Counted from the first letter of the whole stretch, positions 20,186 through 52,709 are shown. The stretch: 63,117 nucleotides of DNA, filler included, from Stramenopiles sp. TOSAG23-6 (GCA_900128565.1; 7 parts of 7 records of this genome joined end to end with filler, not necessarily neighbours in it); one strand, 5' to 3'. Numbers and translations: made by a program. Notes: generated by a model from the sequence alone, not told the origin.

Positions 20186-21069
20186 ATGTCCACCATAGTA
20201 GAAAGTAGTTTATTGCATGAATTAGATGTTGAAATACATAAGAAAAAAATAATCAATAAGTGGCTTATCGTAGCATTAGTGGCTTTGATATTATTCACTG
20301 ACTATACGTTGATGACTGCAATAGTTCCAATTGCCCCAATAATTCTGAAAAATCCGAAGGATATAGCTCTTTTATTCATCACCAAACCTCTTGCGCAAAT
20401 AGTTTGCAATCCATTTGTTGCATACGTAGTATATAGATATAACTGTCCTGCTCAGATACTTTTTGTTGCAACAGCCTTGCTTTGCTTTTCTGCGTCTGGC
20501 TGGTTTTTATGGAGCAGATATGACATCTTACTGTTTCTTAGAGGTGTGCATGGTTTGGCTAGCACCTCCATTATGACCTCTGGATTGACTTTAATAGCTC
20601 GTTCATTTACAAAGCATTCTAACCGAGGTATGGCTTTAGGTGTATCTAACATAGGTGTAGCACTAGGTGTTATGGCTGGTCCTACTATTGGAGGTTTTCT
20701 TTACTATCATTTTAATACTCGACTTCCTTTTGAAGCACTGGCTACACTCGCTGTTATTTTACTTGTTTCTCAAATGTTTATTTGGTACTATATGCGACCT
20801 CCTGATTCCATTGAGTCAGAATCAAGCATTGTCCAAGAAACAGAAANTAATCAAATTATTCTTGATTTAGATTGTGCCGATGAAGAGCAAATTAATAGTC
20901 TGTCTGATCCTTCATATCAACCAAAAATTTTATGTCGGTTGTTACAAAATTACCAAATTTTACTTGCATCATTTTTATTGTTCATTTGTAACTTTTATAT
21001 AGCAGCATTGGAGCCTATCGTACCTCTTTACTTGGTGAAGAATCCTTTCCATTTTAATACAGAAGAAAT
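20186..21069 (+). CDS. MFS transporter, SLC18/vesicular amine transporter-like (partial; mirror copy ~22060-22943 on -)
   Basis: FTDYTLMTAIVPIAP, LRGVHGLAS, RGMALG...GVMAGPTIGGFLY and ALEPIVPLY motifs. Interrupted by a family intron at 21070. Confidence 0.75.
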
Positions 21070-24474: not shown

Positions 24475-24775
24475 TGAATAATAATCTTGTGTTTCAAAAC
24501 TTTTTTTTTGTTACGCATATTTGTACATAATAAATTATTCATTGAAAATTTCAAGATTCGTATAAGAAGATTGAAATGTTTTGATTTGTTTTGCCCTGAA
24601 AATTTTGACGACAGAGTTGACGACAAAGTTGACAGATCGACGGATTCAAAGCCAAAACAAAAAATGAAAAAAAAAAAAAAAAACCTAAAGTCTATTAATT
24701 TTATTTTCCTTATTTGAATATAATACTGCCATATTTTCATTTCGCTGCAAACTTGTGCAAACGTGCAAACTTGGG

Positions 24776-26720: not shown

Positions 26721-27030
26721 TTACACTTTCTTTTTTACTCGCATTTTAATATCAACGTAAGAGCGAAGTACACTATCAAGTACTTTATCTGGGGCAGAAG
26801 CGGCGGCACCATAAACTGCTGCTGTACCTTCTACCTTACAATGTGGATGTATTGTTAAAAAAAAAACACACACACTCAAAAAATAATTGTTAGGTACAAA
26901 ATTTCGTATAAAAAAAAATACATTTGAAATTCATTATGAAAACGTACATTTTCACGTAAAAATTTCACACTACTCTGTATGTCAGAGGCCCATTGTCCAA
27001 GAACTCTCATATGTTGCTCACCCAGGCACA
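26721..27030 (-). CDS. C-terminal exons of a sphingosine-1-phosphate lyase-like PLP enzyme (partial)
   Basis: Spliced translation ...SDIQSSVKFLREN|PHCKVEGTAAVYGAAASAPDKVLDSVLRSYVD...* resembles the SPL C-terminus. GT...AT family intron. Confidence 0.5.
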
Positions 27031-29756: not shown

Positions 29757-32700
29757 TTAAAAATATCTCTGTTTGCTATTTCGAATGGTTGGCATAATTA
29801 CATGACTACTTGTTGTATTTCGTGTTTTTGTTGTATTTCGTGTTTTTGTATGAATATTCATTGTTTCAATACTATTATTAATATCATTCATGAGTGCATC
29901 AAAATGATGAGCTTGAAAAAGTATGTGTCGTTTCTGTTGTGACATTATTTGAGTTTTTTTTTCTTGTGATTTTATTTTTTTTATTTTTGTTTTTTTTTCA
30001 TGTGATTTTATTTTTTTTATTTTTGTTTTTGTTTTTTTTTCTTGTGATTTGAGAATATATTCCAATAAATCATTACTACTCCATTTAGGATGTAATAATG
30101 TTCGTATACCATTAAGGTTAGGGTTAGGGTTAACAAAATGTGTATGTTTTGAACATAATAAAAGCATTTCTTTTACATTTTGTTTTGTATGAAAATTTTG
30201 TACTTGAGTATTTTTGTCTTTTCTATTTGTTTGTACACGAAATATTGAAACAATTGTACTAGTATTGTGTTCTATTGTATCACCAAGAAGATTTGTCAAG
30301 GCATGTATACCAGATATTTGTTTACCTAAAAATTTCATTTTAATCTGAAAAATTGAATCTATTACATTTTTTTGTACATTTTTTGAAATTTTTAAATTTT
30401 TTGAAATTTTTAAATTTTTTGAATTTTTAAAATTTTGATCATATTTATCAATTTGATCATATTTATCAATTTGATCATATTTATCGATTTGATCAGTTGT
30501 AGTTGATGGAATAGTTAAATATACAATATTTAAAATACCTTTTGTGCTTTGTTTTTTTNTATTGTTTTGTATTTTTTCTATATTTCTATTTTTTTGTATT
30601 TTTTCTATATTTCGTGTAGTAGTAGTAGTTGTTGTTCTAACACCGATGACTACAGAAACTTCCAAAATATTCCATTTTTTTTCTTTACACATTGTATGTA
30701 TTGTATCAATACCTTTAATTAGTACAATTTTAGCATCAAAAATATTTTTGACAGAGATCTCATTAGGGTTAGGGTTTTTTTCATTTTTTTCATTTTTTAG
30801 TATACTAGACAAAATTTCATGTATTTAAAAAAAATATTTCAAAATGTTTTTTTTTATTAGGTACAAAATTTCGTACGAAAAAAAAAATTCCAAGTTGAAG
30901 AAAAAAAGCATACATATACCATATTGTTGTATACAATTTGTATACTTATTGTAACAATATACTCAAAATCAAAATTATATGAATTTTGTGTTTTTTTTTG
31001 TATTTTTAATTTTTCAAATATATCAAAAAAAATTGTATAGAATATTTCAATATTTTGATTTTTTTGTGTTTTTTCAATTTTTTCAATTTGATTGTTTTGA
31101 TTGTTTTGATTGTTTTGATTGTCTCCCCATAATAAAAGTATACAAGATTTCTTACCTAAAACAAAAGCTTTTGTACATTTTTGAGTCATATTCAATACTT
31201 CATTTTGTGTATGTTCTTTCCCAAAAACACCATCAAAATCAAAATATTCTCTTTTTCCATATTTCGTGTTTTTTTCACCACCAAAATCAAAATATTCTCT
31301 TTTTCCATATTTCGTGTTTTTTTTCGTGTTTTTTTCAACATGTCTAATACTTAATATAATTTGTTTGTTTTGTACATTTGGAATCAATATAAATCCATTT
31401 TTTATATACGACATACAATGACTTGATTCGTCATCAACCCAGCAATACGAAAAAAAATGTTGATCACTTTTTTTTGTTTTTTCTTTTATATTTCGTGTTT
31501 TACAATTTTTATTTTTTTCTATTTTTTTAATTTTTTCTATTTTTTTATTTTTTTGTTGTAGTTTTTGAAATTTTATAATATCCATACCCAATTTTTGTAT
31601 TTCATGTTTTGTGAATTCTTGCATGTCTAAATAAGATTTTTTTATTGAATAAAATGATTTTTGTAATTCTAAAAATTTTTTTTTTACATTTTTGATGTTT
31701 TGATTTTTTTGATTTTTTTGATTTTTTTGATTTTTTTGATTGTTTTGTTTTTTTTGTTTTTTTTGGGTTTTCACATATATTTCGTGTTGTATTTGTTTGA
31801 TTGGTGAAAGTGTTTTTGAAGCTAAATATTCCATACATAAATTGTTTATTTTTGTATGTTTTGTATTTTTTGTATTTTTTGTATTTTTTGTATTTTTACT
31901 ATATTGAAGTAAAATCGATTTTAATTTCAGTTTTTCTTGTAGTAGTTGATAACTCAATTTCTCAATATTCTCAGAATCCATTATATTTTTCATACTTTTT
32001 ATACTGTTTATATCTTTTGGAATGTTTGTATAAGACGTCAATGGTACTAATTGTTTAGGGTTAGGGTTTGGAATAATGACGTCATTCTTTGTAGGTTGTA
32101 CACAATGTAAATGATTCAATGATGTTGATGGTACTAATTGTTTAGGGTTAGGAGGACAAGGACTACAAATAGGAGACATTGGTGTTAAAGATTGATGAAA
32201 ACTTTCATTCCACATTCGAGTTTCATCTTGGTACAAAATATCCGTACCAACATTTGTACTATTTTCTTCATTAGGGTTAGGGTTAGGGTCATTGTCATCA
32301 AATCCATTTTTTTCAGGACTTTGTGTGGGAATATTTATAGTCTGACAATTATTATTCATAGTAGGGTTAGCATCAGTCGAATTAATGACACTGATATTTG
32401 TGTCGAATTCGTTTCGCAATTTACTTTTTGTGTTGGTTCTTTTTGGATTATTGACATCAAATGTGATTTTTGGATGATTCACATCAAACGTGACACTGTT
32501 GACATCATTCGTTGTATAAATTGTATTATAATTTGTATTATAATTTGTACTAGAAGCTCCATAGTACTCTCTACCAAACTCATCAAAATCTCCATCAAAA
32601 TCCGTACCATGTAAACTCCTTGAGGGAGAATTTGTTGTCGCTTTCAATGTATCAAAATTTGTTGTCGCATTCAAAGTATCAAAATCCGTACCATGTAAAC

Positions 32701-33201: not shown

Positions 33202-34663
33202 GAGACATCATATCAGCTGACCAAGGAATTCAGAATCTCAGATGAACGAGCTCGAAATATACTACATAATCATATTATACCTGTTGTTAGGTTGATTAAT
33301 TCACTGACATTACATATTGATGAGATACAAGTACCTGAAAAAGAAGAGAATGTATGTTTTTTTTTTTTTGTATTAATTTTTTTTCGTACGAAATGTTGTA
33401 CCTAACGAATTTTATTTTTTTTTTTGAAATATTTTTCCAAAATACATGAATCGCCTAAACATTGGTATGAACGCATAAAACAGAAGAAAATATCAGTGCG
33501 CAGAACATTAAATCGTATTCAACAAGGAAATTATATATCTAATCTTGGTGTGTATGTTTTATTTATATTTTTTTTTGTATGATTTTATTTTTTATGGTAA
33601 ATTTTGTACCTAACATTTTTTTTTTTTTTTAAATATTTTTCCAAAATACATATTATCTTGTATGGGCGACGCATTCTTTGTTTGGATAAATGATACTGTA
33701 TACACATGGGGTAAAATCGTAGATGGTAAAATTCTTCATGGTTATTTTAATGAACCACTCAAACCTAAACTTGTTCAAGCAATACAAGGTAAAAAAGTAA
33801 AGCAAATATATGCTGGTGGTAATCACAATGTTGCATTATCGGATAATGGTGATGTATACACATGGGGATATGGACCTAATGGTCAACTTGGTCATGGTGA
33901 TGAAAATGATCAAGTCATACCTAAACTTGTTGAAGCATTATATTTCAAAGGTAAAGTAACAGAAATATCAGCTGGTGGTGGTCACACTGTTGCATTACTT
34001 GAAAATGGTGATGTACACACATGGGGAAATGGACGTTTATGTCAACTTGGTCATGGTGATGAAAATAATCAAAACAAACCTAAGCTTGTTCAAGAATTAC
34101 AAGGTAAAAAAGTAAAGCAAATATCAACTGGTAATTATTACACTGTTGTATTACTTGAAAATGGTGATGTATACACATGGGGACATGAAGAATATGGTAC
34201 ACTTGGTCATGGTGATGAAAATAATCAAAACAAACCTAAACTTGTTCAAGCAATACAAGGTAAAAAAGTAAAGCAAATATCAACTGGTAATTTTCACAAT
34301 GTTACATTATTGGATAATGGTGATGTATACACATGGGGATATGGAAATTTTGGTCAACTTGGTCATGGTGATGAAGAAAATCAAAACAAACCTAAACTTG
34401 TTCCAATTTTACTTGGAAAAGTAAAGCAAATATCAGCTGGTCGTTTTCACACTATTGCATTACTTGAAAATGGTGATGTACACACTTGGGGATTTGGAAG
34501 ATATGGTCAACTTGGTCATGGTGATCAACAAAATCAAAACAAACCTAAACTTGTTGAAGATGAAGCATTACAAGGTAAATATGTAGTAAGAGTAAAAGCG
34601 ACANCATGGAGTACTATTATTTATGGAAATGATGGTGATGTGATTGCAAAATATGGTAGATAA
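33202..34663 (+). CDS. RCC1-repeat protein, paralog of 23125-24474, with two family introns (5' end unclear)
   Basis: Six VYTWG/VHTWG...LGHGDE repeats. The upstream exon KHWYERI...QGNYISNLG is homologous to KQWYTRV...EGIYTSELG. Introns at 33352-33447 and 33552-33651. Confidence 0.8.
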
Positions 34664-34879: not shown

Positions 34880-36079
34880 GTCCTAATAACCCTAACCCTT
34901 GATCTGCTGCTAAAAGTCCATTAGTATCGGCACGTGCTCCTATATAGCTAGTGACGTCATACACATTTCGTGTCTCAGGAGTTGTATTTTCATTTCTTGT
35001 TTGAAAATATTTTTTTTAATTTTTTTGTTAGGTACAAAATTTCGTATGAAAATTTAAAATTTTCATTTCTTGTTTGAAAATATTTTTTTTAAATTTTTTT
35101 GTTAGGTACAAAATTTCGTATGAAAATTTAAAATTTTGTAATGATTAAAAATGTACATTGATTGTAGATCCTTCGGCACCTAATGCAAATGTATTGTAGA
35201 AAAATATTTCAAAAAAAAACTAAAAAAAATCGTTAGGTACAAAATTTCGTACGAAAAAAAATTCATACAAAAAAAAATTCATACAAAAAAAATCTAAAAA
35301 AAATCTTAAAAAAATCGTTAGGTACAAAATTTCGTACGAAAAAAAATTCATACAAAAAAATAAGAAAAACATACAAGACTCCCAGGATCCCGATCTTCAC
35401 AAATTTGAATAAGACATGATTTAAACTCTCTAAGCTCGACATGTATTGCGAAAAAATATTTTACATTTAAATTTTTTGTTTAGGTACACATTTTCATACT
35501 AAAAAAAATAAATTTTGAAAATTAAATTTTGAAAACGTACATTTTCCTCGTATAATCCCGCAACCAAATGAGGCTCAATATCTAATGAAGAGTCTGATGA
35601 AATTCTATCATTATTATCGAGTATATTTATCTCATATGATATTTTTTCATTTTCATGTTCTTCTTGGAACTTCAAAAATGGAGGAATGTTAAACATACTT
35701 TTTAAATGAACGTATGGATTATGAAAAAATATTTCAAAAAGAAGTTTTTGTTAGGTACAAAATTTCGTATGAAAACAAAATGTAGACAAAAAAAATGAAA
35801 TGAAAACGTACATAAATCTTTACTTGCTGATATTGAGATATGTTCTTCATGATCATTATTTATTTGTGTAGATGATACTGTTGAAGCTAGACGACAAATC
35901 ATTTCCTCGAATTGTGCAAATGTAATAGTAGACAAACAATCGCAGCTTTTTATCAATGATTCTACAAAAGATGGATTTTGTACAAATTCGACTGTGGCTT
36001 TGTGGAATGCAGATACATTCAATCTTTCTTGTTTTTTAACTGAAAAATGACAAAGTAAATATAATAAAGATTGTTGTAC
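34880..36079 (-). CDS. Fragmented multi-exon gene of unknown function with micro-exons between family introns
   Basis: ORF pieces 35702-36103 and 35499-35696 plus short exons, all bounded by the intron consensus. No family recognised. Confidence 0.3.
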
Positions 36080-37739: not shown

Positions 37740-40700
37740 ATGGCTCCCCCAAAACCACTGACAGTTACCGATGATGGTCACTGGAAGCCTCTTATAGAAG
37801 GCGAGCAACAGATTAAAGTGGTTTCTGAATATGCAAAGTCTAGTCGTGCTCGTTGCCGTTTGTGTAGTGAAAAAATCTTGAAGAACGAAGTTCGATTGGG
37901 ATTTCCAGTAAAATGGCGAGGTGGTGAATATGGTTGGATATCTTCATGGCGTCATCTTCTATGTTCCCGCCTGGAAGCGGAAGATCACGACAAAAATATT
38001 AATGATATTGTATGGGGTCTCCAAAACTTAAAAAAGCCGGATAGGGCATTAGTTAGAGCGGAGCTTGCAAAGAGAGGAACACCGGAACACTTAAAACCAT
38101 TAGATATTGAAGCTACGACTTTTAAAACTGCTCGTATTCCGAAACTGGTAGAACAACCGAAGGAAATTTTATTAAAGATGCTTCCTTATCAACTCGAGGG
38201 TTTTGGTTTTATGAAAGCTCAAGAAGCTAGCCTTTATCGAGGAGGTATTCTTGCAGATGAAATGGGTATGGGGAAAACATTACAAGCAATTGCTTTATTA
38301 GTTTCGGATGATAAAAATAGTACATGTGCAATTTCGGATAAAAGCAATTGTAAAGGTAAAGGAAGGGTTAGTAGGGTTAGGGTTGGCGTGTCTAAAAAGA
38401 AAAAACAAACTAATACAAAATGTGCTAAAAAGGAACAAAACGGACATACAGAAAGTTGTTGTGAAACCAATTCTGATCAACACTCCCAACTTGTGGAAGG
38501 TCCAACTCTCATTGTCGTACCCACATCAGCACTTCATCAATGGAAAAATGAAATTATTCGGTGTACAGCCGAAGATTCATTAACTGTGATGGTGTATTAC
38601 AAGAATCGTTCAAAAGTTACCATGGCGCAAATTTTATCCTATGATGTGATTATTACAACGTATCCTGTTTTAGAGAACGAATATCGAACCGTGGTTAATC
38701 GTGAGCGCGTGCCATGTGCGTATTGTAATAAGCTCTACTTGCCACGAAAATTGATTCTTCATAACAAATATTTCTGTGGTCCTAATGTATGTTTTATTTT
38801 TTTTCAAATTCGATTTTTTTTTATAGGAAATTTTGTACCAAAGTATTTTTTTTTTTTTTTTGAAATATTTTTCCAAAGTACATGCAAAACGATCTAAAAA
38901 ACAGTCCAAGACAGAGAGGAATGAAACTGCACAAAAAGCGACAGCTTCAGCAATGGTTACTTTACAAATTGCAAATTCAGATGATGCGGCTGAAGCTGTC
39001 GCAAATACTTGTAAAGCAAATAATGCGTTATCACGTTTTTCGTTTAAAAATGTAAATAGTACAAAAAACGTCGTTGACATGAAAACGACAAAAAATAAAC
39101 AAAAAACGAAAAGAAAACAGAAAAAAAAAGAAAAAAATAGTAAGCCGAAACGTGCATCCACTGCTTATAATTGTTTTGTACGAAGTCGTCGTGCTGCTAT
39201 GAAAATGAAGCATAAAAATGCATCATCAACGGAATTAATTCGGCTTCTAGCTGCTCAATGGAAATCAGCAACAAGTGAAGAAAAAGCTCCAGCTATAGAA
39301 GAGGCAAAACTAGACAAAATTCGGTATCAACAGGAATTAGACACATGGAAATCACGGCCTAAAAGTAGTAGTAGTAGTAGTGAATCAGAAAGTTCAAGTG
39401 AAACAGATGTATCCTTCTGGCCAAAAAACGTTTCTCAATCATTTCCAAAAAAGGTTTCTCAATCATTTCAGACAATTCAAAATCAAGGAATATCCACTTC
39501 AACTCAATCAAAGACAATTGGAAGATCGTGTAGAGGTCTTACTCCAAGTGGAATATATCGAGAACTAATGGTAGATGCAAATAGAACGCCTCTTCCTATG
39601 TACGTTTTATATGAATTTCTAATTTATTTTTTTTTTCATACGAAATTTCGTACCTAACAAATTTTAGTTTTTTTTTTGAAATATTTTTTCACAATACATG
39701 TACATGAAAGCTTCGGAACGTGCGAAAATTGTCAATAAGGAAAAGACATTATCAACCTCAAATACAGCAAATAATGATAATACTTTAGTAAAAGATAGAA
39801 AAAATACGAATTGTACTACCCAATATATGGATATGAATAGTTCAAGTACATCTCAAAGTATGAGTAATTGTGTTACATCAGTAACATCTACTCGTCGTCG
39901 TAGCGTGAGAGCCAGTGCTGTCAAGGCAAAACAACGTTGCTCGGATATTGTAGCACAAGAAAGTTGTTATGATGTAGATGGAAATGTGAATAAAACGGAC
40001 AATTCTGAAAAAGATGATAGTGTAAATACAAATGGAACTGTCGATAGTGGTGCTGAAGGTGACAGTGATACATATACAATTCCTGTATGTACGATTGATG
40101 CTGAAAAGATATTTGATAACGATAGTGAACTTAGTGATACTACATGCAATGAAACAAAAAAGCCAAACAAAAAACATGTTAAAAAGTCTAAAAACATAAA
40201 GTCTACAATATCAAAGACGTCAAAAGAAAAAGCAAAATTAAAAAAAGCAAAATCAAGAAAAGCAAAACGAAAGGCCTTGCAGTGTATTGAAGCTCTAGGT
40301 AATGAGATGAATAATCAAATTTCTACGAGTCAAAAAAGTTTATCAATAATGAGTAGTAAAAAAAGGAAATCATCAAGTAAAAGGAGTAGTAGTAATAACA
40401 ATAGTAAAAAAGGGAAATCATCAAGTAAAAATAATAGTAAAAAAAGGAAATCATCAAGTAATAATAATAGTAATGAAAAAAAAAAAAAATGTTCAAAAAA
40501 CGTTTTTGTAGATTCGACGACATCATCTTCTGAATATAGTAGTTCCAGTAGTTCTGGGGAAGAATCGAATGATACATTTGTAGAATATCCAAAATATGCA
40601 GAAGAAGGATTGATAATGACTGATGAAGGTGTACGTTTTCAAAATTAATTTTAAAATTAATTTTAAAATTTGTTTTATTTTTCATACGAAATTTTGTACC

Positions 40701-43700
40701 TAACGATGTTTTTACGAAAAACAAAATATTTTTCACAATACTTGTAGATCTCTGTTACTCCATATTACATTGTATAAATTGGCGTAGAATAATTTTAGAT
40801 GAAGCTCATAAAATTAAAGGAAGAACGAATAATACTGCAAAATCAGCCTATGCTTTAACAAGTGTAAATCGTTGGTGTTCGTTTCCATTATGAATTTCAT
40901 TTTTTTTTTCTCTCATACGAAATTTTGTACCTAACAATGAAATTGAATGTAAAATATTTTTCACATTTCGTGTCTTACTGGAACTCCTATTCAAAATCGA
41001 GTGGGTGAATTGTATTCTCTTGTTCGTTTTTTGCGTATAGATAAATTTGCGTATTATTATTGTGGTGCGAAAGGGTGCGATTGTAAGTCTCTTCATTGGT
41101 CGTTTGGTAGAATGTATCTTTTTATTTTTTTTTCAATGTTTTTTCAAATTTTTTTTTATAGTAAATTTTGTACCTAACAAATTTAAGTTTTTTTTTTGAA
41201 ATATTTTTCCACAATACATGCAACGTAAGTGTAATCAATGTAATCATCCTCCAATGAAGCATTATAGTTATTTTAATAAGTATATCATCAATCCTGTCAA
41301 ACGGTATGGATATATTGGGGATGGTAAAAAGGGAATGCTTATGCTTCAAAATGAACTGTTGGCCAATGTAATGTAGGTTTTCATTTCAAATTTATTTATT
41401 TATTCGTACCAAAATTTGTACCTAACAAAAAAATCAAATTTGACAGATTTTTTCACAATACATGCTTCGAAGAACAAAAAAAGAGAAAGCATCTGATTTA
41501 AAACTTCCTCCTCTCATTATTAACGTTGAAATGCTGGAATTTGTACGTTTCCATTCCATTCCTAATTTATATTTTTTTATATGAAATTTTGTACCTAATG
41601 ATTTTTTTACAAAAACAATATTTTTTTTACACTACTTGATGAAGAAGAACAAGATTTTTATGAGTGTATTTACAAGCATACTCGATCTCGTTTTGATACA
41701 TATGTTGATAAAGGAACTCTTCTTCATAATTATGCCCATATATTTGAACTGCTCTCTAGATTAAGGCAATGTACAGATCATGTATGTTTTACTTTTTTTC
41801 AAATTCGATTTTTTTTTTATAGTAAATTTTGTACCTAACAAGTTTTTGTTTTTTTGAAATATTTTTCCAAAATGCATCCTTACCTAGTTGTTCATGGAAA
41901 ATTCAAAGGTAAATCAGCACCAATGCCATCTCGTAGTAGTAAAGGTAGTGTATGTTTTATTTTTTTCAATTTTTTATCTAAATGTTTTTTTTTATAAAAA
42001 TTTTGTACCTAACAAATTTTAGTTTTTTTTTTTTGAAATGTTTTTTCACAATATATGGTGCAGGCCGTGAAGTATGTGGAATTTGTTGTAAAGACATTGA
42101 AACTACGAAAGACACTGCCATTGCATCATGCAAGCATGCGTTTCATCGCTCGTGTATTCGAACTTATATTGGTGAGATGGAAGAATTAAATACTGAAAAT
42201 TTTGTCTCTCAGAATCGAAAAAAAAAAAAAAAAAGTAACAACAACACGAAAAACACGAAAAAAGTGGGTAAAAAACGCTCATTAAAAATGATGTCGTCTG
42301 ATTGTGAAGAAATCGAACCCGATGTTTTTAACGAAGGGATCGTTGCTGGAGGTAGTGGTAATGTCAAGAAAATATGTCCTGTATGTTTCCAGGAGCTTAC
42401 GATTTCTTTTCTTGAGTCAGGTGGTGCTGATGATGATGAAATAAAACATATACCAAAACATCATGTACGTTTTCAAAATTTAATTTCAAATTTTTTTTTT
42501 TTTTGGTAAAAAAATTTTGTACCTAACAAATTTTGAATAAAAAAAATATTTTTCCAAAATACATGTGGATAAAATATGTGACATAAGTAAAGCTCCCGAA
42601 AGTACAAAAGCGCCATGTGCCATTTGCATGGATCGACCGCGCAATGCTCTGCTTTTACAATGCGGTCATTGTTTTACATGTGTTACTTGTGCGAAGAAAC
42701 TTCCAAATAAAGCATGTCCAATTTGCACGTTTTCATTATGAATTTCAAATTTTTTTTTTTTTTTGGTTTCATACGAAATTTTGTACCTAACAAACTTCGA
42801 ATTTAATTTTTTTTACAATACATGTCGTGCGAAGATTGTGAAAATTATTCGTGTACAACTTGGATCAAATGGTGTCACAAGTTTTGAAGAAAATCGAATT
42901 CAGGATAATACTTATAATGATTTGAATCATATGTCAATTATGCAAAAAGTTGCCACGAAAGAATTTTCGTCATCTACAAAGGTCGATGCGCTTCTTGCGG
43001 CAGCAAATCGACTTAAAAAGAATGAAAAAGCGATAGTCTTTAGTCAATACTCCTCTATGATTGATATTATTGAATGGGCCTTGAAAAGAGACGGTCAGCG
43101 TGTTGTAAAACTTATTGGAAATATGACTGCAATACAAAGACACAACGTCCTTTCACAGTTCAAAACTGATCCATCAATTAATATTATTATTTTAAGTTTA
43201 CGTGCAGGTGGAGAGGGTTTAAACCTTCAAGAAGCTTCTCATGTACGTGTTCAGTATTCATTTTTACCAATTTCGAATTTATTTTTTTTCGTACGAAATT
43301 TTGTACCTAACATTCTTTTTTTTTTTTGAAATATTTTTCATGTACGTGTTCAGTATTCATTTTTACCAATTTCGATTTTTTTTTACTTTGAAAATTTTTT
43401 TTACATATTCGTTTTCATTTTTCATTTCATTTTTGTTTTTCTAAACAAAATTTTATATATCTAATGAGTTTCGAATTTGATATATTTTTTTATGCTCTAT
43501 GTGTTTGTATTGGAACCTTGGTGGAATCCCCAAGTGGAGTGGCAAGCTATACAGAGAGCTCATGTATGTTTTATTTTTTTTCAAATTTTTTTTTTTATAG
43601 TAAATTTTGTACCTAACAAATTTAAGTTTTTTTTTTTTTAATATTTTTCCAAAACACATAGGATTGGTCAGACTAAGAAAGTCATAGCTACTCGATTTAT

Positions 43701-43842
43701 TGTGAAAAATACGATTGAAGAGCGGATGCTGCAACTGCAAGAAAAGAAGCAATTGGTATTTGAAGGTTGTATTGATGCATCGACTGCAGCTCTTGGGCAA
43801 CTCACTGAAGAAGATTTAAAATTTTTATTTCACAACGGATGA
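37740..43842 (+). CDS. RAD16: RAD16/RAD5-family SNF2 helicase with PARP-type Zn finger, HMG box and two RING fingers; 14 exons
   Basis: [83 protein letters not shown]. Introns at 38787-38883, 39600-39699, 40631-40743, 40877-40971, 41114-41219, 41373-41463, 41543-41637, 41782-41877, 41950-42056, 42465-42564, 42725-42823, 43243-43500, 43564-43659. Confidence 0.88.
40877..40971 (+). mobile_element. Family intron, GT...GT with GT direct repeat
   Basis: tgGT|GTTCGTTTCC...CACATTTC GT|gtctt restores helicase motif III RWCLTGTP. No AG is available. Confidence 0.8.
41543..41637 (+). mobile_element. Family intron, GT...TT with TT direct repeat
   Basis: gaatTT|GTACGTTT...ACACTAC TT|gatgaa restores [12 protein letters not shown]. 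Confidence 0.8.
42725..42823 (+). mobile_element. Family intron, GC...AT
   Basis: ccaattt|GCACGTTTT...CAATAC AT|gtcgt restores the RING motif CPICR. Confidence 0.78.
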
Positions 43843-43936: not shown

Positions 43937-45081
43937 TTAATGAAGATTTCTAATTTCCCATCCCAAAATACCATTATCATCGCCCATCTTCAATTCTTGA
44001 TGATGAAATTGTTCTAATGCTAGACGTTGCGAAATAGTAATACTAGTAATACCTCGATCATGAGCTGCACGATAAAGATTTTCTTCAACATCCACTGAAA
44101 CTGCACTAGTACATTCATCTAATACTGCAAATTGAGGCGCATGGAAAAATAAACGAGCTACACCAAGTCGTTGTTGCTCACCTAAAGAAAGAACATGTAT
44201 TTTGGAAAAATATTTCAAAAAAAAAAAAAAATTGTTAGGTACAAAATTTACTATAAAAAAAATAAATTCGAAATTCGAAATTGAAAAAAAAAAAAAAAAC
44301 ATACATCTTCCCATATTGCTACAGCATCCCAGCCGGAGATATTTCCAATATTTTCTGTGACTGCAAACCTATCTACTAAATAGAAAATTCCTACTAAATG
44401 TAGTAATTTTTCAAGTTTTTTTTTTAATTCTTTTGTCTGATTTTTCTTCACAAAACGTTTAGGATATGTTATTTGGTCTAATAGGGTACCCGTCACAGAA
44501 TACGGTTTCTGTGATACAAGAAATACATTTTGATGTGTGACAATTCCTTCATTATTACAAGGTCTCTCAATTATACCCTTTGGAATATTCCACATACCAC
44601 CCAAAACACGAAATAATGAGGATTTTCCAGACCCATTTGGTCCAGTGACAATCAGTGGTTTCCCTGCTGATACCGTGAAATTTAATGATTTAGCACAACA
44701 TGTACCACCCGGAGCAACAATATCTACATTTTTGAAAGAAATATAGTCACCTTTTGAACGGGTTAAAATGCCACCAGTGAAATACCCAGAATATCTACAT
44801 ATTGTTGAATTGTTTAACTCAATTTCATCGTTATCACTAGATTGTATACACTGAACATGAAATTTATCTACATTTGATAGATCTTCTAATACGTACATCA
44901 AATCAGTAACATTTTCCAATACTCCAAAAAATTTACCTATTAATTCCTGAAGTTCGAATACATCACCAAATGATTTGAAAGATCTCAATACTGTTTGTTG
45001 AATATATTCACCAACCCTAGGTATCTGTCCAATTTTATCGACCCGAAATTTACTTTTTTCGGAAGTAAGCATTTGAGTGTA
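43937..45081 (-). CDS. Peroxisomal ABCD-family ABC transporter, C-terminal part
   Basis: GPNGSGKSSLFRVLGGMW, QKPY, WED|VLSLGEQQRL, LDECTSAVSVDVE. GT...AT intron at 44195-44304. Confidence 0.9.
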
Positions 45082-45321: not shown

Positions 45322-45964
45322 GAATGGGATAAAGAAGATGTTGAAGAAGATGTTAAAATATTAAATGAGCAATTACAGAGAAATTATCGTGTGATGTCTT
45401 CTTTTGAACGTTATAAAATGGAGCTACAGACTGGAAATTTAGTGAAAGGCCCGGCCCATGTATGTTTTATGTTTTTTCAAATTCGAAGTTTTTTTTTCGT
45501 ACGAAATTTTGTACCTAACGAAAAACATTTTGAAATATTTTTTCACAATACATACTGAAGATTTTTGGAATGAAAATGCATTCAGATTTGAAATGAATGA
45601 GTTTAAATTAATTAAGCAATTAGTTACACTACTTGAAGCATCACAATCCTCAACTGAGACTTTAAGTTTAGCTTGTTATGATATAGGAGAATTTGCAAGA
45701 TTTTATGAAAGTGGAAAGTATGTTTTATTTTTTTTTCAATTTTGAATTTATTTTTTTTTTTCGTACGAAATTTTGTACCTAACAAATTTTTTTAGATTTT
45801 TTTTGAAATATTTTCCAAAGTACAAGGTTGTTTTACGAATGCTTAATGCAAAAGAAAAAATTATGGCCTTGATGTCACATCCGGATGAAGATGTCGCTAA
45901 ACATGCGCTACAGGCAGCTGCTAAATTACTGATATCCAATTGGGAGCATATTGGAGTATCTTGA
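45322..45964 (+). CDS. ATP6V1H: V-type ATPase subunit H, C-terminal part
   Basis: SSFERY..EL..G.L..GPAH|TEDFWNENA, LACYDIGEFAR...GK|VV...IMALMSHPDEDVAKHAL. Introns at 45460-45553 and 45718-45825. Confidence 0.9.
45718..45825 (+). mobile_element. Family intron, GT...AA with AA direct repeat
   Basis: ggaAA|GTATG...AAAGTAC AA|ggtt. Using the AG one base further on would frameshift V-ATPase H into a TGA stop. Confidence 0.8.
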
Positions 45965-46700
45965 ATAACCCTAACCCTAATTCTTTTTTGGATGTCAAAA
46001 AAGTTACTTAGGGTTAGGGTTCGAAATTCGAACAATATTTCAAAAATAATAATAATTTTTGTTAGGTACAACTTTTTCATAGTTAAAAAAAAATGGCAAC
46101 ATAATAATGATAATCACTGATTATATATTGTTGCCTTTTTTCGTACAAAACTTTGTAGTGGAGGAGGCATCGATGGAAAAAAATATGAAAGGTGATTTTT
46201 ATTTTTTAATACATTTGGCTTTTTAATTTTTGTATTTTTTGTATTTTTTGTATTTTTTGTATTTTTGGTTTTTTTTGTATTTTTTGTTTCTTTTTGTATT
46301 TTTTGTATTTTTGGGTTTTTTTGTATTTTTGGTTTTTTTTGTATTTTTTGTTTTTTTTGTGTTTCTGAATTTTCTGAATTTTCATGGTAATCTCACTTGA
46401 GAAGAAACCAAAAAAACAACACAAGAATAAAGCTTTTCATAGATCTGTATTAATTCTTTCATTTTGAAATTTTTTAACACGAAATCGGTCAAATTGAAAT
46501 ATTTTATTTTTATGCTGTCATAAATTGGATGTGTCAATATTTAATAGCTATTATTACTATATAATCGTCTGGTTACAAGGTCATACATTATATTTTACGT
46601 AGCTAATACAAAGTCCGAATACACATTCGATATTATTGCGCAGCGAATTAAAAATTTAATGGGCACAGCCTATTTGATTACGAAATAGCTTTCTTCAATA

Positions 46701-47924
46701 ATGTTTAAACTGTTTAGTATTTCTTTAATAATTTCTGTATATGCTCCGCTACGACAAAATGTTGTACAACAAAACACCGGCAGCACTACACGCCCCAGCA
46801 AAAGGACCAACACCGCAGACAAGACTGCCACTGCCACGACAAGCAAACTTGCTAGTCGGCAGAATGTAATTTGGGATTCTGAAATGATGCGAAATATAAT
46901 TGCTTCTCGATTAGCTTATAAAGATTCGGTTGATACAGAAAGTCATGATAGTAATGCTAGCGGCGGTTTTCAAGTGAGTGCTAGACATAATAGCCCAAAA
47001 CTCCCAAGCATTTCAACTATTCCATTCGCAGAGCAGAGATCTACAGAAAGTAAACGATATATGGATCCATCCACTAGTGGCTCACCTTTTTCTCCTCGGT
47101 TATCATTATTCCAAAGTGTCATTGAAATGCATAATAGAAACGGGTTGTATGACAGAAACAATAAAAGGGTATCGCAAATACATCAAAACAGCAACATCAG
47201 CAGCATCACACAAAACAACGAAAGCAAAAAAACAAATGTACCAACTGTTCTAAGAAATTCAACACGCCCACGAAGTCAATCTACGGCTGTCTCAGCATCT
47301 ACACTGTTTGGAAAATATTTGTCCCCACCAAAAACAAAAACGAAAACAAAATCTCCTCCAAAACTTTTACATAAACCACATAAAGGCACAGTTGAAACGA
47401 CTCATGGCACTAGACACACTGAAGGCACAACATTACGGCGTCATGATCCAATCATAGGAAATGGCTCATCTTCCTATCCAAAGACATCTTTCCTCTCAAG
47501 ACCTCCACGAACTATTTTAGAGATAATGAAGAAATATCATAAAACTCCACATAGTACCGCAGTGTTGTCACCAGAGCCAGAATATGTTGTAGGTGTGCCT
47601 TTCCAATCATCAACGTTATTGAGTACACCTACAAATGAAAGCATATATCCAAAAACAAATGTAACAAATCGAGTATCTAAACTGTCAACATCATCCCCAA
47701 AACGAACACAATCTGCAACTTTACTCCGTGCAAAGGCAATGTTGGAAGCGTCGAAAGACAGAAGAAAAAAACAAGACATATCTAGTAAAAAATCAACTGC
47801 TGTATTAACTTTTTCAAGTATACTAGATCAAACAAAGAGCAATTCTAAGGCACATAATCATCGATATGTATCAAATCATTCTAAAACACAAGAAAGATCT
47901 CGTCAAAGTTACATAAACGTATAG
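46701..47924 (+). CDS. Ser/Thr/Lys-rich low-complexity hypothetical protein
   Basis: 407-aa ORF with no recognisable domain. Confidence 0.5.
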   Translation: MFKLFSISLIISVYAPLRQNVVQQNTGSTTRPSKRTNTADKTATATTSKLASRQNVIWDSEMMRNIIASRLAYKDSVDTESHDSNASGGFQVSARHNSPKLPSISTIPFAEQRSTESKRYMDPSTSGSPFSPRLSLFQSVIEMHNRNGLYDRNNKRVSQIHQNSNISSITQNNESKKTNVPTVLRNSTRPRSQSTAVSASTLFGKYLSPPKTKTKTKSPPKLLHKPHKGTVETTHGTRHTEGTTLRRHDPIIGNGSSSYPKTSFLSRPPRTILEIMKKYHKTPHSTAVLSPEPEYVVGVPFQSSTLLSTPTNESIYPKTNVTNRVSKLSTSSPKRTQSATLLRAKAMLEASKDRRKKQDISSKKSTAVLTFSSILDQTKSNSKAHNHRYVSNHSKTQERSRQSYINV

Positions 47925-48281
47925 GAGACATTTGATTACTAAATATAATTATCACTGATGTTAAATATTGAACTGCAGCACTTGATGGCATTATTTCATC
48001 TACTGACTCTTTTGTTACTACAAATATTGATACTATTAGTAATACTATTACTCTTACTACTACTAATTACAATGTTTTGTAGTTAAAAAGTAAAATCTCT
48101 TGTTTCTTTGGTGTATGGAATTTTTTATAGGAGAAAAATGAACAAAGTTGGAATCAATTATCTTTATGTATTTATTTTCAAAAGTCTGTAATATTTCTTC
48201 CACCTTTTTATACCTATATGGTATGTAATCTTATTCTTCTATATGTATCAATTTTGAAATTAGGTCCAATTTCGAAGGTAC

Positions 48282-48381
48282 CAAAGATAAAGCTATACTT
48301 GCGTACGAATTCTTTTATACCCTATATGTTTCAAAGATAAAGCTATACTTGCGTATGAATTCTTTTATACCCTATATGTTT
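48282..48381. repeat. 50-bp tandem duplication covering the stop-codon region of the 48343-49587 gene
   Basis: caaagataaagctatacttgcgtaYgaattcttttataccctatatgttt occurs twice. Confidence 0.85.
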
Positions 48382-49587
48382 CCTTGCTACTCTATTAAAA
48401 ATCTTTTTATATACTACTACAAAAAATATCATAAATACAATAAGTCCAATATAAACATAATTGACTACATTAACTTTGTAATCTTCACTAGAACAAAACA
48501 AAAGCTCATTCTGCTCATTCACCTTGTTTTCATCAATTAAATCATCATTTAAGACTTGATTTGTAATACCACAAGCATTACGACACATTCTAAATTGTTC
48601 GTTTGTCATCTTTGTACCTGTCTGGAGTGAAATATTTTGCCCATAGGAACAAAAATTATCCAATTTCAACCAAAATTTTGGTATGCCATAAATTGCAATG
48701 TTATCTGATTCATCTGAAAATTCGTTTACATTATTCAAAATATTTTCAACCGCTTCATTTTTTATCCAAGAATTTAGTTTTGATTCATTATTACTACGTA
48801 AAATTGAAAAAGAAGAATCAGAAGCAAAATATTGTTTACGTGTATTTGTACTTTGCCATAAAATTTGTATTTCCTGAAATCTCCAATTTGTTTTTTTTGA
48901 ACTATTTTGTTTTCTTTGAGTGATATTCTGTATATGTTCTTGAAGAGAAGAAAATGATTGTTGTGGATATAATGGGTTATAGCCATTTTTTGGTATAAAG
49001 TTATCATCCACACAACTATCTTTGGCGGACTGACCAGTTGTTCCTATATTAAATTTCCAAATTGCAATCAAACCTTTTTGTTTGCGACTCAACGCATCAA
49101 CATAATTTTCATTTTCACTAACAATATCTCTGTGTAAATTTGTTTGCTTTGATTTGGAGCCCCAACAACCATATTTATTCAAACCGGAGACACTCATTAT
49201 ATTATATTGTTCAAGCTGTTTTGTAATAAGATCGATTAAACTATGAGAAAAAGTTTGTGGGACAAGTTTTAAGATGACAAGCTCTGTTGGATTATTTTCA
49301 ATCCAATGTACTAATTTTTGAAGTTCTATTTCAAAAGAATGTGTTCTTTTTATTTCTGCGACATCATGATGAAAACATATGACACCATTCTGTGACGAAA
49401 AAGAAGTCGTAGAACATAATTTTAAACGAAGGTCAAGAACACGAGCACCACAATCTAAAAGTCTGGAAAGACCGTCTTCAACGTGAGGTAAAAATGTCTG
49501 TGTTTTGAATTGGGCACAAAGAGGGCTCGATGTAGGCAAATATACCATAGCAGCATCGTGGGCTTCTAATAACACTGATGGTGGCAT
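48343..49587 (-). CDS. PI-PLC X-domain-like phosphodiesterase with C-terminal TM helix
   Basis: AHDAA..., KTQ, LDCGARVLDLRL, FHH, W..NPTELVIL. TM segment YVYIGLIVFMIFFVVV. Confidence 0.7.
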   Translation of the reverse strand: MPPSVLLEAHDAAMVYLPTSSPLCAQFKTQTFLPHVEDGLSRLLDCGARVLDLRLKLCSTTSFSSQNGVICFHHDVAEIKRTHSFEIELQKLVHWIENNPTELVILKLVPQTFSHSLIDLITKQLEQYNIMSVSGLNKYGCWGSKSKQTNLHRDIVSENENYVDALSRKQKGLIAIWKFNIGTTGQSAKDSCVDDNFIPKNGYNPLYPQQSFSSLQEHIQNITQRKQNSSKKTNWRFQEIQILWQSTNTRKQYFASDSSFSILRSNNESKLNSWIKNEAVENILNNVNEFSDESDNIAIYGIPKFWLKLDNFCSYGQNISLQTGTKMTNEQFRMCRNACGITNQVLNDDLIDENKVNEQNELLFCSSEDYKVNVVNYVYIGLIVFMIFFVVVYKKIFNRVARKHIGYKRIHTQV

Positions 49588-49911
49588 TTTGCATTTAGCT
49601 CAACACAAAAATGTGTTTCTTCTGAAGTTTTGATGATTCGTTTTTTTTGTTTTTTTTTTTTCTGATTGATTCACCGTTCGTTACCCGGTACGATAAGAGG
49701 AAGCGCGAATCATGATTTTCAGGAATTTATTTTATTACGTAGGCCAACATATTCAAAATTCGTTAGGTACGAAATTTGGTACAAAATATGATGTCGGAAT
49801 GTGACGCGTTCTGGGAACGATCGCCGACTCAAGGGATTCGGGGATACCCAACCCCCGAATGATTCAAGTTTTCGAAAGTTTTAAAGTTTTCCATGATTCA
49901 TAGAAAGGAAC

Positions 49912-51417
49912 ATGTCTGTATATAAAGAAATCAAAAATGGAGTGTTGCATAACAAAGAACGAATTGACGAAATAAGAAAAAGTAGTAAGTTCTGGTCACA
50001 AAAGCAAATAGAAGCTGCGTTAGTATACAACATACCTACTGAGACATCAACGCCACTTACACACAATTCGACTACCAGTAACCCCCAACAGTATAGAAAT
50101 GTCACTTTTAAGGATAATGTAAGGTCTAATAAACTATGGGACATTGCAGTATCATCTGTATTTCGTGATAGTCTGTCAAAGATACAGAGAAAAAGCGAAA
50201 AAAAGGATGAAGAACCTTGCACTCCTAGAACTAACAAACTCATTGTAGACCAAGTGTCAACGGTATCAAAAAAGATAGATGAACCACGATCAAAGCCAAA
50301 GGAATATTCCTCGAATATTAAGCAAGACATGGAACAAAAGTCCGCGCAATCATGTGGTCATTTAGTTGAAACGAAATCTTTACTCGAAAACGACGGGTTT
50401 CCTTTGCTAGACGAAGATGTAAACCCTACGGACAACAATGCCTTTCCTTTACTTGAAAATTCTTCATTCCCTTCAGTAGAAAATTGGTCACCGCATGCAA
50501 TACCTAAAACGAAAGGGGGAAGGCGGCTTTCCATGGAAAATGTTCTGAAAGATCTTTTTCCAAATAGAAATTTTGGAAACGAAGAGCGTAAAAGTAAAAC
50601 AAAATTATTAGCGTCACTGATAACAAAGTTGTCTCCGCGAGTAAGTAGGCAAAGTTCGACTAAAAATTCGTATAACTTGAGTGATGAATTCAATTCAAGG
50701 AGATCATCAAATATCCTACAACCTCGACTTTTAAGTGATGCTTTCAAAAAAAAACTTTCACTGCGTAGAAAATCTATTGTACTTGGGCAGTCACGATTAT
50801 TATCTACATCATTAGTAACACCTGCGACCCCTCTTGATACCAGCAAAACTGTTGGAGATGATGATAAGAGAGAAAAGACAATAGTATTGAAAACAATGAA
50901 CACGTTCAAATCTGTAACAAAACAAATTATAGAAAATCAAAAGAGGGAACGTAGATTTTCTCAGCCCTTAATTTCTAATGTTAGTGTGATCAAAGGTAGC
51001 TCTACTGTACTCAGACAACTAAATCCTCAAAATCTTCAAAATCCACAAAAATGTGTAGGTGATAATGGAAGTAATAGAAAAAGCAAAACCACAAATATCG
51101 TAGATTCTCTATCTTCAATTGTAATGGATGCTTCAACACATTCATTTTCATCAAGTGTATTGGATGAGTCACAACAAAGAAAAAAAGAAAACGGAAAAAA
51201 AGAAAACAGAAAAAAAAGTATATCACCTATGAGTCATAAAGATATGACCCCTAACCCTAATTTATCTTCTTCAAAGGCAGTAAGAACGCGAAAAAAATGT
51301 AGAAGAAAGACTCTCGTGATTGAAAGTCGGCCTCTATTGATAGACTTTGATCCTTCATTCTCGATGTACGATAATGAACGGGATCAAAGTTTTGAACAAA
51401 AAGTACATGTTAAATAA
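49912..51417 (+). CDS. Ser/Lys-rich low-complexity hypothetical protein
   Basis: 501-aa ORF with no recognisable domain. Confidence 0.55.
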   Translation: MSVYKEIKNGVLHNKERIDEIRKSSKFWSQKQIEAALVYNIPTETSTPLTHNSTTSNPQQYRNVTFKDNVRSNKLWDIAVSSVFRDSLSKIQRKSEKKDEEPCTPRTNKLIVDQVSTVSKKIDEPRSKPKEYSSNIKQDMEQKSAQSCGHLVETKSLLENDGFPLLDEDVNPTDNNAFPLLENSSFPSVENWSPHAIPKTKGGRRLSMENVLKDLFPNRNFGNEERKSKTKLLASLITKLSPRVSRQSSTKNSYNLSDEFNSRRSSNILQPRLLSDAFKKKLSLRRKSIVLGQSRLLSTSLVTPATPLDTSKTVGDDDKREKTIVLKTMNTFKSVTKQIIENQKRERRFSQPLISNVSVIKGSSTVLRQLNPQNLQNPQKCVGDNGSNRKSKTTNIVDSLSSIVMDASTHSFSSSVLDESQQRKKENGKKENRKKSISPMSHKDMTPNPNLSSSKAVRTRKKCRRKTLVIESRPLLIDFDPSFSMYDNERDQSFEQKVHVK

Positions 51418-51560: not shown

Positions 51561-52709
51561 TCACTTTTTTGAAAGATAACCTGAAACGCCTATTGCAAAA
51601 GCTTGAAAAAGAGAAACTGGATGCTTCACATATACATCAACCAAGCCATCATCTATTGTAGCACCAATGACAAGAACAGTTTCTCCTGTGTTTGAAACAA
51701 GACAAATATTCTTCTTATTCTTTTGAATCTGTGGATATGCTGAAACACTAGGATACATACCTGCAAAAACACACATTGCATTTGATTTTCCATTTATCCA
51801 ATGTGTTTTGTTCTGTAAGTACGCTGTATAAAGTCTATCTTTTTCAAATAAAGCATTTTTTTGTCTCCAATTCGCAGTTAATGTATTTACCTTTTGTGTT
51901 TCATCTATTTGTATTTCTGATGCATGTGGTAATAGAGCAACAAGTCGGTGTTGACCTGCAATTCGAGAAACGAAAGAATCTAAATTGTTCTGATTTGATC
52001 CATATACTAAACATCCCATTTCTCGACGCATTCCTTTCATTCCCAGTTGTTTTGCATCTCGTGGAGCTAAGCCCCAATCATAAATCATATGAGGTGCATT
52101 TGCTACTTTACACCGAACTTTACCTAAATAATCAACACTGTCTCTTCGACAGCGAGTTAAAGGATCACCAGCAATGATTACATTTATACCTCGGCTCATC
52201 TTATGTATTTTGGAAAAATATTTCAAAAAAATTATAAAAAATTTGTTAGGTACAAAATTTCGTACAAAAACAAAATTCGATTTTTTTGTTAAAAAAAAAA
52301 ATAAAACATACATTTCTTTTTGCAGACATTAAAAAAGTTTCAAATGCATAAGACTTTGTTTGTGCAAGTTGAAATGTAAAACGCTTACCATGATCAAAAA
52401 CTTTCAAAGTGCAGTGTATGTATTTTAGAAAAATATTTCAAAAAAAAAAAAAAATAATTGTTAGGTACAAAATGTCGTACGAAAAAAACAATCGATTTTT
52501 TTGTTTAAAAAAAAAATAAAACATACATTATACCATCCGATTTTAAGCGAGGTTGTGTTAAAAACGTTTTTCTTTGTGATGGTGACATTGTTTGTACTCT
52601 AGAAAAATATTTTGTCTTCAGTAAACCTGGATAACAACTTACAGAACCATCATACAAATCTTGTTCAGTTGGAAAATCATTTTTCTTTTTTGAATGTAAA
52701 ACTATCTTG

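Follow-up and report, generated by a model that had tools for sequence, protein, structure and literature searches.

The DNA described here is a window of 63,117 bases from Stramenopiles sp. TOSAG23-6 (GCA_900128565.1), made up of seven contigs of about 8.9 kb each that are joined by N44-TTAATTAATTAA-N44 linkers; our main subjects in it are a RAD16/RAD5-like gene and the family of repeated introns that interrupts it. The G+C content of the window is about 30%. Gene density is high, with genes on the two strands in alternating orientation and intergenic spacers of about 100 nucleotides (nt). The RAD16-like product has zf-PARP, SNF2, RING, and helicase C domains and an HMG-like insert, and 13/13 of the introns in its gene belong to a single family (Table 1). 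DNA runs from two studies, one of which consists of seawater metagenomes, contain 0.6 or more of the words sampled from this locus. Three metatranscriptome runs share 0.20, 0.14, and 0.06 of the sampled words, values that are not evidence for expression or splicing.

One Family of Introns across the Window

The core motif of the family, TTTTGTACCTAAC, occurs 63 times in the window at up to two mismatches, against 3.2 occurrences expected, and a count of 63 was reached in 0/100 shuffles. A hidden Markov model (HMM) of the family, trained on 25 well-formed copies, gave 62 matches in an nhmmer search of the 63-kb window, on 7/7 contigs. Forty-four copies could be delimited as introns, in at least 14 open reading frames (ORFs) on the seven contigs, and genes are interrupted about once per kilobase in this AT-rich marine protist. 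This is a real feature, well outside what chance would produce.

Copies are about 90–125 nt long, with a mean pairwise identity of 74% over 103 model columns. Most of the conservation falls in the 5′ site, in a branch block of 16 nt, and in a 3′ cassette of 20 nt; the spacers between them have diverged. Each copy has a yeast-like 5′ site (GTAYGT), a branch block (TTTTGTACCTAAC), a T-rich tract, and a 3′ cassette (GAAATATTTTTCCAAAATAC). At the 5′ end, which was tabulated for 36 copies, G1 is present in 36/36, T2 in 34/36 (the others being one GA and one GC), and A3, G5, and T6 in 35/36 each. Together with this hexamer, the branch-site block GTACCTAAC and the T tract that follows it give the introns the 5′ and branch motifs of the U2 type. 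In 30/36 copies, the element itself terminates in AC. All full-length matches (30/30) are in sense orientation relative to the interrupted ORF, and the only intergenic copies seen are partial and degenerate.

Half of the internal contig ends (6/12, at 8965, 27085, 36131, 36232, 45135, and 45236) fall within an element copy, as expected where an assembler breaks at a high-copy repeat, so the family is abundant enough to fragment the assembly. Compound introns with at least two partial tandem copies are found at 43243–43500, 3257–3475, 3810–3944, and 35024–35374, the last of these being a cluster with four core motifs. In the first, the duplicated unit restarts at ...CAT↓GTACG, which suggests a microhomology-driven duplication. 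Intron density is very uneven: the RAD16-like gene has 13 copies, and several long ORFs have none (4854–6140 on the minus strand, 27244–29334 on the plus strand, and 46689–51417). These copy-free ORFs encode BspA-type and other LRR proteins and include three ORFs of 411–506 amino acids that have no Pfam match.

Exact Removal Restores Reading Frames and Conserved Motifs

In a blind frame test, boundaries were taken from the HMM alone, and each excision began at the first G of the copy and took in the 2 nt that follow ...AATAC. A copy was scored as joined when the longest upstream and downstream ORFs came together in frame, an outcome with a chance of 1/3 per copy. This was the case for 27/30 HMM-delimited copies (binomial probability about 2e-10). 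Two of the three misses involve short exons that are resolved by gene models, and the third, at 59677, is uninformative, with a stop 11 nt after the copy. Four of five further copies also join in frame, the exception being 35374, with an ambiguous frame. When 39 elements are removed, ORFs of 1551, 962, 768, 734, 578, 536, 450, and 442 codons arise, all under the standard genetic code.

In the RAD16-like gene, all 13 removals are needed to obtain one ORF of 1549 amino acids. The spliced protein was aligned using MAFFT with 32 homologues, the first among 62 long matches with sizes of 900–1700 amino acids, and the alignment is gap-free at introns 1, 4, 5, 6, 7, 8, 12, and 13. These junctions fall within the motifs YFCGP.A.RT.KQ, RWCLTGTPLQNRV, LRRTK, DFYE, DHPYLV, HVF..PWWNP, and QRAHRIGQ, where the use of any available in-frame AG would cost conserved residues. 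At intron 13, a 2-nt shift of both cuts would turn the Arg of HRIGQ, which is conserved in homologues, into Val. Similarly, the C-terminus of V-ATPase H is gap-free over 146 residues against a relative that is 74% identical (P0157), across two introns, one of which ends in AA. The exons that flank this AA-ended intron match Pfam profile positions 26–76 and 80–117, and the three positions between them correspond to unmatched exon-end residues and the codon that the intron splits. Because reading frames are restored and homology is gap-free, the sequence supports the conclusion that the segments must be removed exactly, and that canonical GT-AG boundaries fail for most of them.

These results bear out much of a first-pass annotation of this DNA, which had claimed non-canonical 3′ ends across the window and family membership for all 13 RAD16-like introns. 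The motifs that it expected to be restored, RWC↓LTGTP, M↓LRRTK, DH↓PYL, SH↓VF..PWWNP, and RAH↓RIGQ (arrow, junction), are indeed gap-free relative to homologues, as is GPAH↓TEDFW relative to the V-ATPase H relative. Its general interpretation, exact removal with non-AG ends, agrees with the evidence from frames and homology; what it had missed was the likely mobility of the family, the duplication, and the ambiguity of the splice register, all of which are discussed below.

A further observation concerns the 3′ half of the RAD16-like gene (40631–43659), in which introns start about 170–260 nt apart or at double that distance (spacings of 246, 237, 259, 170, 239, 168, 515, 260, 518, and 321 nt). 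This regularity may reflect chromatin-guided insertion.

The 3′ Ends and a 2-bp Direct Repeat

In the register favored below, GT...NN, the 3′ dinucleotide of the 44 introns is AT in 37, TT in two (40743 and 41637), GT in two (40971 and, on the minus strand, 14730), AA in one (45825), and AG in two (3944 and, on the minus strand, 13023). The canonical 3′ AG is thus found in 2/44 introns only, and 42/44 lack it. The first-pass list of 3′ ends holds for AT, TT at 41637, GT at 40971, and AA at 45825, and had omitted TT at 40743 and GT at 14730. The adjacent AGs that it had described as out of frame are offset by +2 at 43659 and by +1 at 45825; the 5′ variants that it reported, GA (4329) and GC (42725), are present, and its two AG-ended copies, 3810–3944 and 13023–13135 (minus strand), are canonical GT-AG introns in the GT...NN register only. 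In 13/34 copies, splicing would have to bypass an AG that lies past the branch motif but short of the 3′ end, and 17/34 have no in-frame AG from the branch site to 40 nt past the 3′ end.

The last two exon bases are identical to the 3′ dinucleotide in 35/44 introns, of which 31 are AT/AT. Non-AT repeats (GT/GT at 40877 and, on the minus strand, 14859; TT/TT at 41543; AA/AA at 45718) account for four of the seven non-AT 3′ ends. Since both ends change together, which a fixed element terminus would not predict, the 3′ dinucleotide is most simply read as a 2-bp target-site duplication. A Helitron-like insertion between A and T without duplication was also considered and rejected: such a model would require the two ends to have changed in concert at 45718, 41543, and 40877, an agreement that follows at once from duplication.

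The 3′ context, ...ATACAT↓G, departs from the canonical ...YAG↓G solely at the last intron base, and of the 44 introns, 40 have A at -2 and 41 have T at -1. A-U may be a true preferred 3′ dinucleotide, in which case the insertions into AT targets would be survivors; or else the machinery may have no preference, and the bias toward AT may come from the element's choice of targets. Both readings are compatible with the data.

The termini of the element form short inverted repeats, GTAT...ATAC, that are extended by the palindromic AT. Predicted terminal pairing amounts to 4.7 expected pairs, versus 1.2 in shuffles, and to at least four pairs in 24/38 copies. The helix is weak (mean minimum free energy of -10.9 versus -9.7 kcal/mol for shuffles) and has fewer than two expected pairs in 10/38 copies, which nonetheless restore the frame. 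A fixed distance from branch site to 3′ end, as a ruler for the cut, is excluded by the observed spread of 33–59 nt. The suggestion of the first-pass annotation that position or structure, instead of AG, defines the 3′ site is tentative in view of this spread, of the weak helix, and of the possibility that AT is preferred and not arbitrary.

Recent Gain of the Introns

In five loci (L002, L003, L004, L006, and L007; 51–53% identity), residues 889/897–1546 of the RAD16-like protein form a single one-frame tblastn match, and the window gene has 11 introns (introns 3–13) where these loci run uninterrupted. A scan of metagenome contigs with RAD16-like exon 12 returned 61 related loci, the best near-full match being 58% identical and all matches above 58% being partial; none of the 61 loci contains an element copy, and none comes from the same species. 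Because the closest orthologues found are without these introns, the comparison identifies the latter as lineage-specific recent gains.

Searches for a protein from the same species, with RAD16-like exon 12 as the query among proteins of near lengths and with a V-ATPase H exon among those of longer lengths, found none, the best matches being 55 and 74% identical, respectively. One deposited protein of 1239 amino acids (P0009) corresponds to 38180–43842 and, where exon 12 is matched, shows 99% identity. It reads through intron 8, holds intron-derived peptides at other junctions within conserved motifs, and omits parts of exons; as a model, it clearly does not mirror the removal pattern proposed here. 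Gene finders that assume GT-AG introns can be expected to mis-annotate the genome. An Rfam scan of the window gave no match.

Coordinates of the Introns and Other Features of the Window

Table 1. The RAD16-like gene and the 44 delimited family copies. Flank, last two exon bases before the intron; 3′ end, last two intron bases in the GT...NN register; repeat, identity of the two.
Feature	Coordinates	Strand	Flank	5′ end	3′ end	Remarks
RAD16/RAD5-like gene	37740–43842	+				14 exons, 13 family introns; 1549-amino-acid ORF after removal
Intron 1	38787–38883	+	AT	GTATGT	AT	Gap-free at YFCGPN↓AKR
Intron 2	39600–39699	+	AT	GTACGT	AT	Internal AG 10 nt past branch A skipped
Intron 3	40631–40743	+	GT	GTACGT	TT	Imperfect repeat
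Intron 4	40877–40971	+	GT	GTTCGT	GT	Repeat; gap-free at RW↓CLTGTP
Intron 5	41114–41219	+	AT	GTATCT	AT	Gap-free
Intron 6	41373–41463	+	AT	GTAGGT	AT	Gap-free at V↓MLRRTK
Intron 7	41543–41637	+	TT	GTACGT	TT	Repeat; gap-free
Intron 8	41782–41877	+	AT	GTATGT	AT	Gap-free at DH↓PYL
Intron 9	41950–42056	+	GT	GTATGT	AT	Imperfect repeat
Intron 10	42465–42564	+	AT	GTACGT	AT	
Intron 11	42725–42823	+	TT	GCACGT	AT	GC 5′ variant
Intron 12	43243–43500	+	AT		AT	Compound, 5′ part tandemly duplicated inside; gap-free
Intron 13	43564–43659	+	AT		AT	Adjoining AG out of frame; gap-free at RAH↓RIGQ
RPC82/POLR3C intron	2961–3074	+	AT		AT	
RPC82 intron	3257–3475	+	TA		AT	Compound; in-frame AG 3 nt downstream
RPC82 intron	3810–3944	+	TC		AG	Compound; canonical GT-AG
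RPC82 intron	4051–4157	+	AT		AT	
RPC82 intron	4329–4449	+	AT	GA variant	AT	
Family intron	7288–7392	-	AT		AT	
Family intron	7966–8071	-	AT		AT	
Family intron	8224–8329	-	AT		AT	
Family intron	8453–8611	-	GT	GTTTGT	AT	
PX-domain gene intron	11240–11378	-	AT		AT	
Family intron	13023–13135	-	AT		AG	Canonical GT-AG
Family intron	13278–13354	-	AT		AT	Short
Family intron	13796–13918	-	AT		AT	
Family intron	14233–14387	-	AT		AT	With insert
Family intron	14730–14859	-	GT		GT	Repeat
Family intron	15549–15644	-	AT		AT	
Family intron	26847–26947	-	AT		AT	
Family intron	30819–30913	-	AT		AT	
RCC1-like gene intron	33352–33447	+	AT		AT	
RCC1-like gene intron	33552–33651	+	GT		AT	
Family copy	35189–35374	-	TT		AT	Compound; frame assignment ambiguous
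Family intron	35441–35540	-	AT		AT	
Family intron	35714–35811	-	AT		AT	
ABC-transporter gene intron	44195–44304	-	AT		AT	
V-ATPase H intron	45460–45553	+	AT		AT	Gap-free versus P0157
V-ATPase H intron	45718–45825	+	AA		AA	Repeat; Pfam positions continue across junction
Tubby-domain gene intron	52203–52311	-	AT		AT	In-frame AG at +3
Tubby-domain gene intron	52418–52526	-	AT		AT	
Tudor-domain gene intron	56792–56883	+	AT		AT	
Family copy near JmjC/cupin ORF end	59677–59771	+	AT		AT	Stop 11 nt after copy
Family intron	60053–60142	+	AT		AT	

Two other features of the window deserve mention. The contig at 18128–27085 contains a perfect palindrome of 3116 nt without spacer (arms 18449–21564 and 21565–24680), which duplicates, in inverted orientation, an RCC1-like ORF and an MFS-transporter ORF; it looks like a chimera of whole-genome amplification rather than biology. 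In addition, the 63 kb hold thirteen telomere-like motifs, (CCCTAA)2-3 or (TTAGGG)2-3, at 3280, 3681, 9175, 10683, 25593, 30118, 30763, 32055, 32271, 45969, 46008, 51249, and 52973. Several are in frame in long ORFs (for example DPNPNPN at 32271–32288, minus strand), some lie inside or adjoin element copies, and an inverted pair is located 3′ of the V-ATPase H stop (45969–46019). They may be interstitial telomeric insertions or else belong to another small inserted repeat.

Interpretation and Rival Explanations

The reading that we favor, with a probability of roughly 60%, is that the segments are elements resembling introners or miniature inverted-repeat transposable elements (MITEs), which create a 2-bp duplication on insertion and are spliced out with a mostly non-AG 3′ end. 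A non-autonomous element would insert in genes, duplicating 2 bp of its target, usually AT, and would itself contribute the 5′ site, branch site, T tract, and 3′ cassette. The spliceosome would then make its 5′ cut ahead of the GT that begins the element and its 3′ cut past the downstream repeat copy, and the message would be restored by the loss of the element together with one copy of the repeat. The intron would end in whatever the target gave, that is, AT in most cases and otherwise TT, GT, AA, or AG, and the spliceosome would accept A-U at a 3′ site where A-G is the rule, or would even prefer it. That a G(+1)-U(-1) contact replaces the second-step G-G contact is speculation.

A broader version of this proposal, for which the odds seem to us somewhat short of even, is that essentially every intron derives from one mobile element and that the major spliceosome has been freed from the 3′ AG. 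Strict GUAYGU and CUAAC signals would be kept, and introns would end at A-U or at the 2-bp duplication created by insertion; the 3′ site would be read from the internal cassette, or the specificity for the last base would have changed from G to U.

If removal is spliceosomal, GT...NN is quite probably the register in use, on indirect evidence of four kinds. At positions +1 to +6, GTAYGT is the standard pairing partner of U1 and U6, and a cut 2 nt upstream is out of register with it. At intron 3, GT...NN encodes Gly, the commonest residue among homologues (8/32), and the shifted register encodes Val (1/32). At 3257–3475, a shift of -1 or -2 would place an in-frame TGA upstream of the exons for the C-terminal winged helix of POLR3C, and the AG-ended copies also point to GT...NN.

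Several observations weigh against the favored reading or its register. The 2-nt repeat makes the register ambiguous from DNA, since at 35/44 introns GT...NN, a 1-nt shift, and NN(GT)...AC yield identical mRNA. The Gly at intron 3 is found in just eight of the homologues, and the TGA argument is weakened by the in-frame AG 3 nt downstream of 3257–3475, which would give a canonical GT-AG intron with one residue different. The ORFs of the window that were scanned contain no transposase domain, the terminal inverted repeats are very short (4–6 bp plus a few), and a 2-bp AT duplication fits no testable transposon superfamily, so the transposon mechanism is putative. More generally, spliceosomal removal at the RNA level, the cut sites, the GT...NN register, transposition, and altered 3′-site recognition are all deduced from DNA. 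To our knowledge, tolerance of a G-to-U change at the 3′ end is not known for any characterized spliceosome.

The same elements could instead be removed by the spliceosome in a register 2 nt upstream, as AT-AC introns with TT-AC, GT-AC, and AA-AC variants. AT-AC is the only non-GT-AG pair known to function in both spliceosomes, the mRNA would be the same at the 35 introns with a perfect repeat, and the AC that terminates most elements would become the intron end, with most introns reading AT...AC. We nevertheless consider this register unlikely. It entails the Val at intron 3 and the TGA at 3257–3475, it would turn the two AG-ended copies into AT...AT and TC...TC, and it sets the cut 2 nt ahead of a perfect GTAYGT, out of register with the pairing of U1 and U6. 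Nor do the signals resemble those of U12-type introns, in which a 5′ [AG]TATCCTT is combined with a branch site, TCCTTAAC, near the 3′ end: the 5′ end here is (AT)GTAYGT, with GTAYGT after the putative AT and no ATATCC, and the branch block is 33–59 nt away from the 3′ end, where U12-type introns have about 10–26 nt.

An equally unlikely explanation is non-spliceosomal removal from RNA, with the cuts defined by pairing of the ends, as proposed for euglenids and hemistasiid diplonemids. The excess of predicted end pairing over shuffles and the short direct repeats at the boundaries are consistent with it, and such introns have been described in marine protists in the available text of two sources (PMC12621601; PMC6221363). 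Yet the most conserved parts of the element are GTAYGT and the CTAAC block, which would not be expected without a spliceosome, and the weak helix is nearly absent in about a quarter of the copies scored, all of which restore the frame.

Excision at the DNA level, as for the internal eliminated sequences (IESs) of ciliates, with one copy of the 2-bp repeat left behind, appears very improbable. The assembled DNA contains the segments on 7/7 contigs, they carry a full set of spliceosomal signals, and long ORFs are obtained with the standard genetic code. A direct repeat of 2 bp with short inverted ends does recall the TA-bounded IESs of Paramecium; the boundaries here are AT, not TA, and the ends are GTAYGT...AATAC instead of the TAYAGYNR-like consensus of IESs.

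Finally, ordinary GT-AG splicing at nearby AGs with small protein indels is largely refuted by these sequences, and pseudogene decay is ruled out by the preserved frames in the blind test: two copies do end in AG, a few in-frame AGs lie 3–9 nt downstream (for example at +3 for 52311 and 3257), and P0009 disagrees with the spliced model at the majority of junctions, but half of the copies have no in-frame AG in reach, eight RAD16-like and two V-ATPase H junctions are gap-free through invariant motifs, and P0009 itself holds intron-derived peptides inside conserved motifs.

Comparison with Known Intron Systems

Introner elements of Micromonas and Aureococcus were reportedly treated by Huff et al. 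in 2016, and the non-canonical introns of Fritillaria borealis by Henriet et al. in 2019. According to papers that cite them, Gawryluk et al. are said to have predicted in 2016 non-canonical introns, with no transcript data, in single-cell genomes of marine diplonemids. A literature search with three motifs of the element returned only unrelated papers among the matches listed, and an earlier description of the family is possible.

The closest resemblance may be to introners, which in the available portion of a survey by Gozashti et al. comprise many near-identical introns at unrelated positions in Micromonas, Aureococcus, and many other eukaryotes (PMC12130899). As described there, introners are non-autonomous elements with a target-site duplication that bring their own splice signals, with the boundary in or next to the duplication, and they represent lineage-specific recent gains (PMC12130899). 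The present family has similar introns at non-homologous positions, an apparent target-site duplication, and absence from orthologues; it is an exception as regards canonical termini, a demonstrable transposase, and splicing, which here is deduced from sequence. The families described in that portion of the survey end in canonical AG, unlike the 42/44 introns without it here, and the duplication is just 2 bp in our case (PMC12130899). Families with mainly non-canonical sites were screened in the survey against transcript or RNA-seq alignments, and those that failed were discarded (PMC12130899). A family such as this one would escape introner surveys limited to introns that are canonical or supported by RNA.

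The marine protist Amoebophrya (strains A25 and A120) also has repeated introns with direct repeats over their boundaries, ambiguous borders, and inverted ends able to pair, and most of the introns are non-GT-AG (PMC7789003, as far as its available text goes). The same text describes many families, with inverted repeats of 8–20 nt, direct repeats of 3–5 nt, and no consistent terminal dinucleotides (PMC7789003). In contrast, the window has one family, with conserved GTAYGT and CTAAC, a repeat of 2 nt, and 3′ ends that are mostly AT.

In the nonconventional introns of euglenids and of hemistasiid or eupelagonemid diplonemids, the available parts of two sources likewise report no 3′ AG, short direct repeats, and paired ends, together with a suspected MITE origin and occurrence in marine protists known as single-cell genomes (PMC12621601; PMC6221363). 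Those parts, however, describe introns with no U1-complementary 5′ end or conserved branch motif, and with G+C-rich ends in hemistasiids (PMC12621601; PMC6221363). The sequence here is AT-rich, and the 5′ hexamer and the branch block are the best-conserved segments, so that the borders do not lack conservation. Judged by their signals, the introns are not U12-type and do not fit the nonconventional introns of euglenids or hemistasiids. A diplonemid origin of the window, which this literature brings to mind, is weakly disfavored by the alternating strands of its genes and by the intergenic spacers of about 100 nt.

Fritillaria borealis offers a genome-wide escape from GT/AG in which introns with a 3′ AC or AT exist, a modified major spliceosome is involved, and transposon-derived introns are discussed as a source (PMC13326754, in its available part). 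Both ends are non-canonical and diverse in that species, and duplicated U2AF subunits read the non-AG ends (PMC13326754); the 5′ end stays canonical here, and a single family is concerned.

Few signals in eukaryotic gene expression are as conserved as the 3′ AG. In the known mass exceptions (Fritillaria, Amoebophrya, and euglenozoans), signals are lost at both ends or are very diverse, and the mechanism is hard to dissect. If the favored reading is true, near-identical elements with textbook-like 5′ and branch sites and a change in the 3′ dinucleotide only would constitute a clean natural experiment, one that informs both the choice of site in the second step of splicing and how the target duplication of a transposon comes to serve as a splice site.

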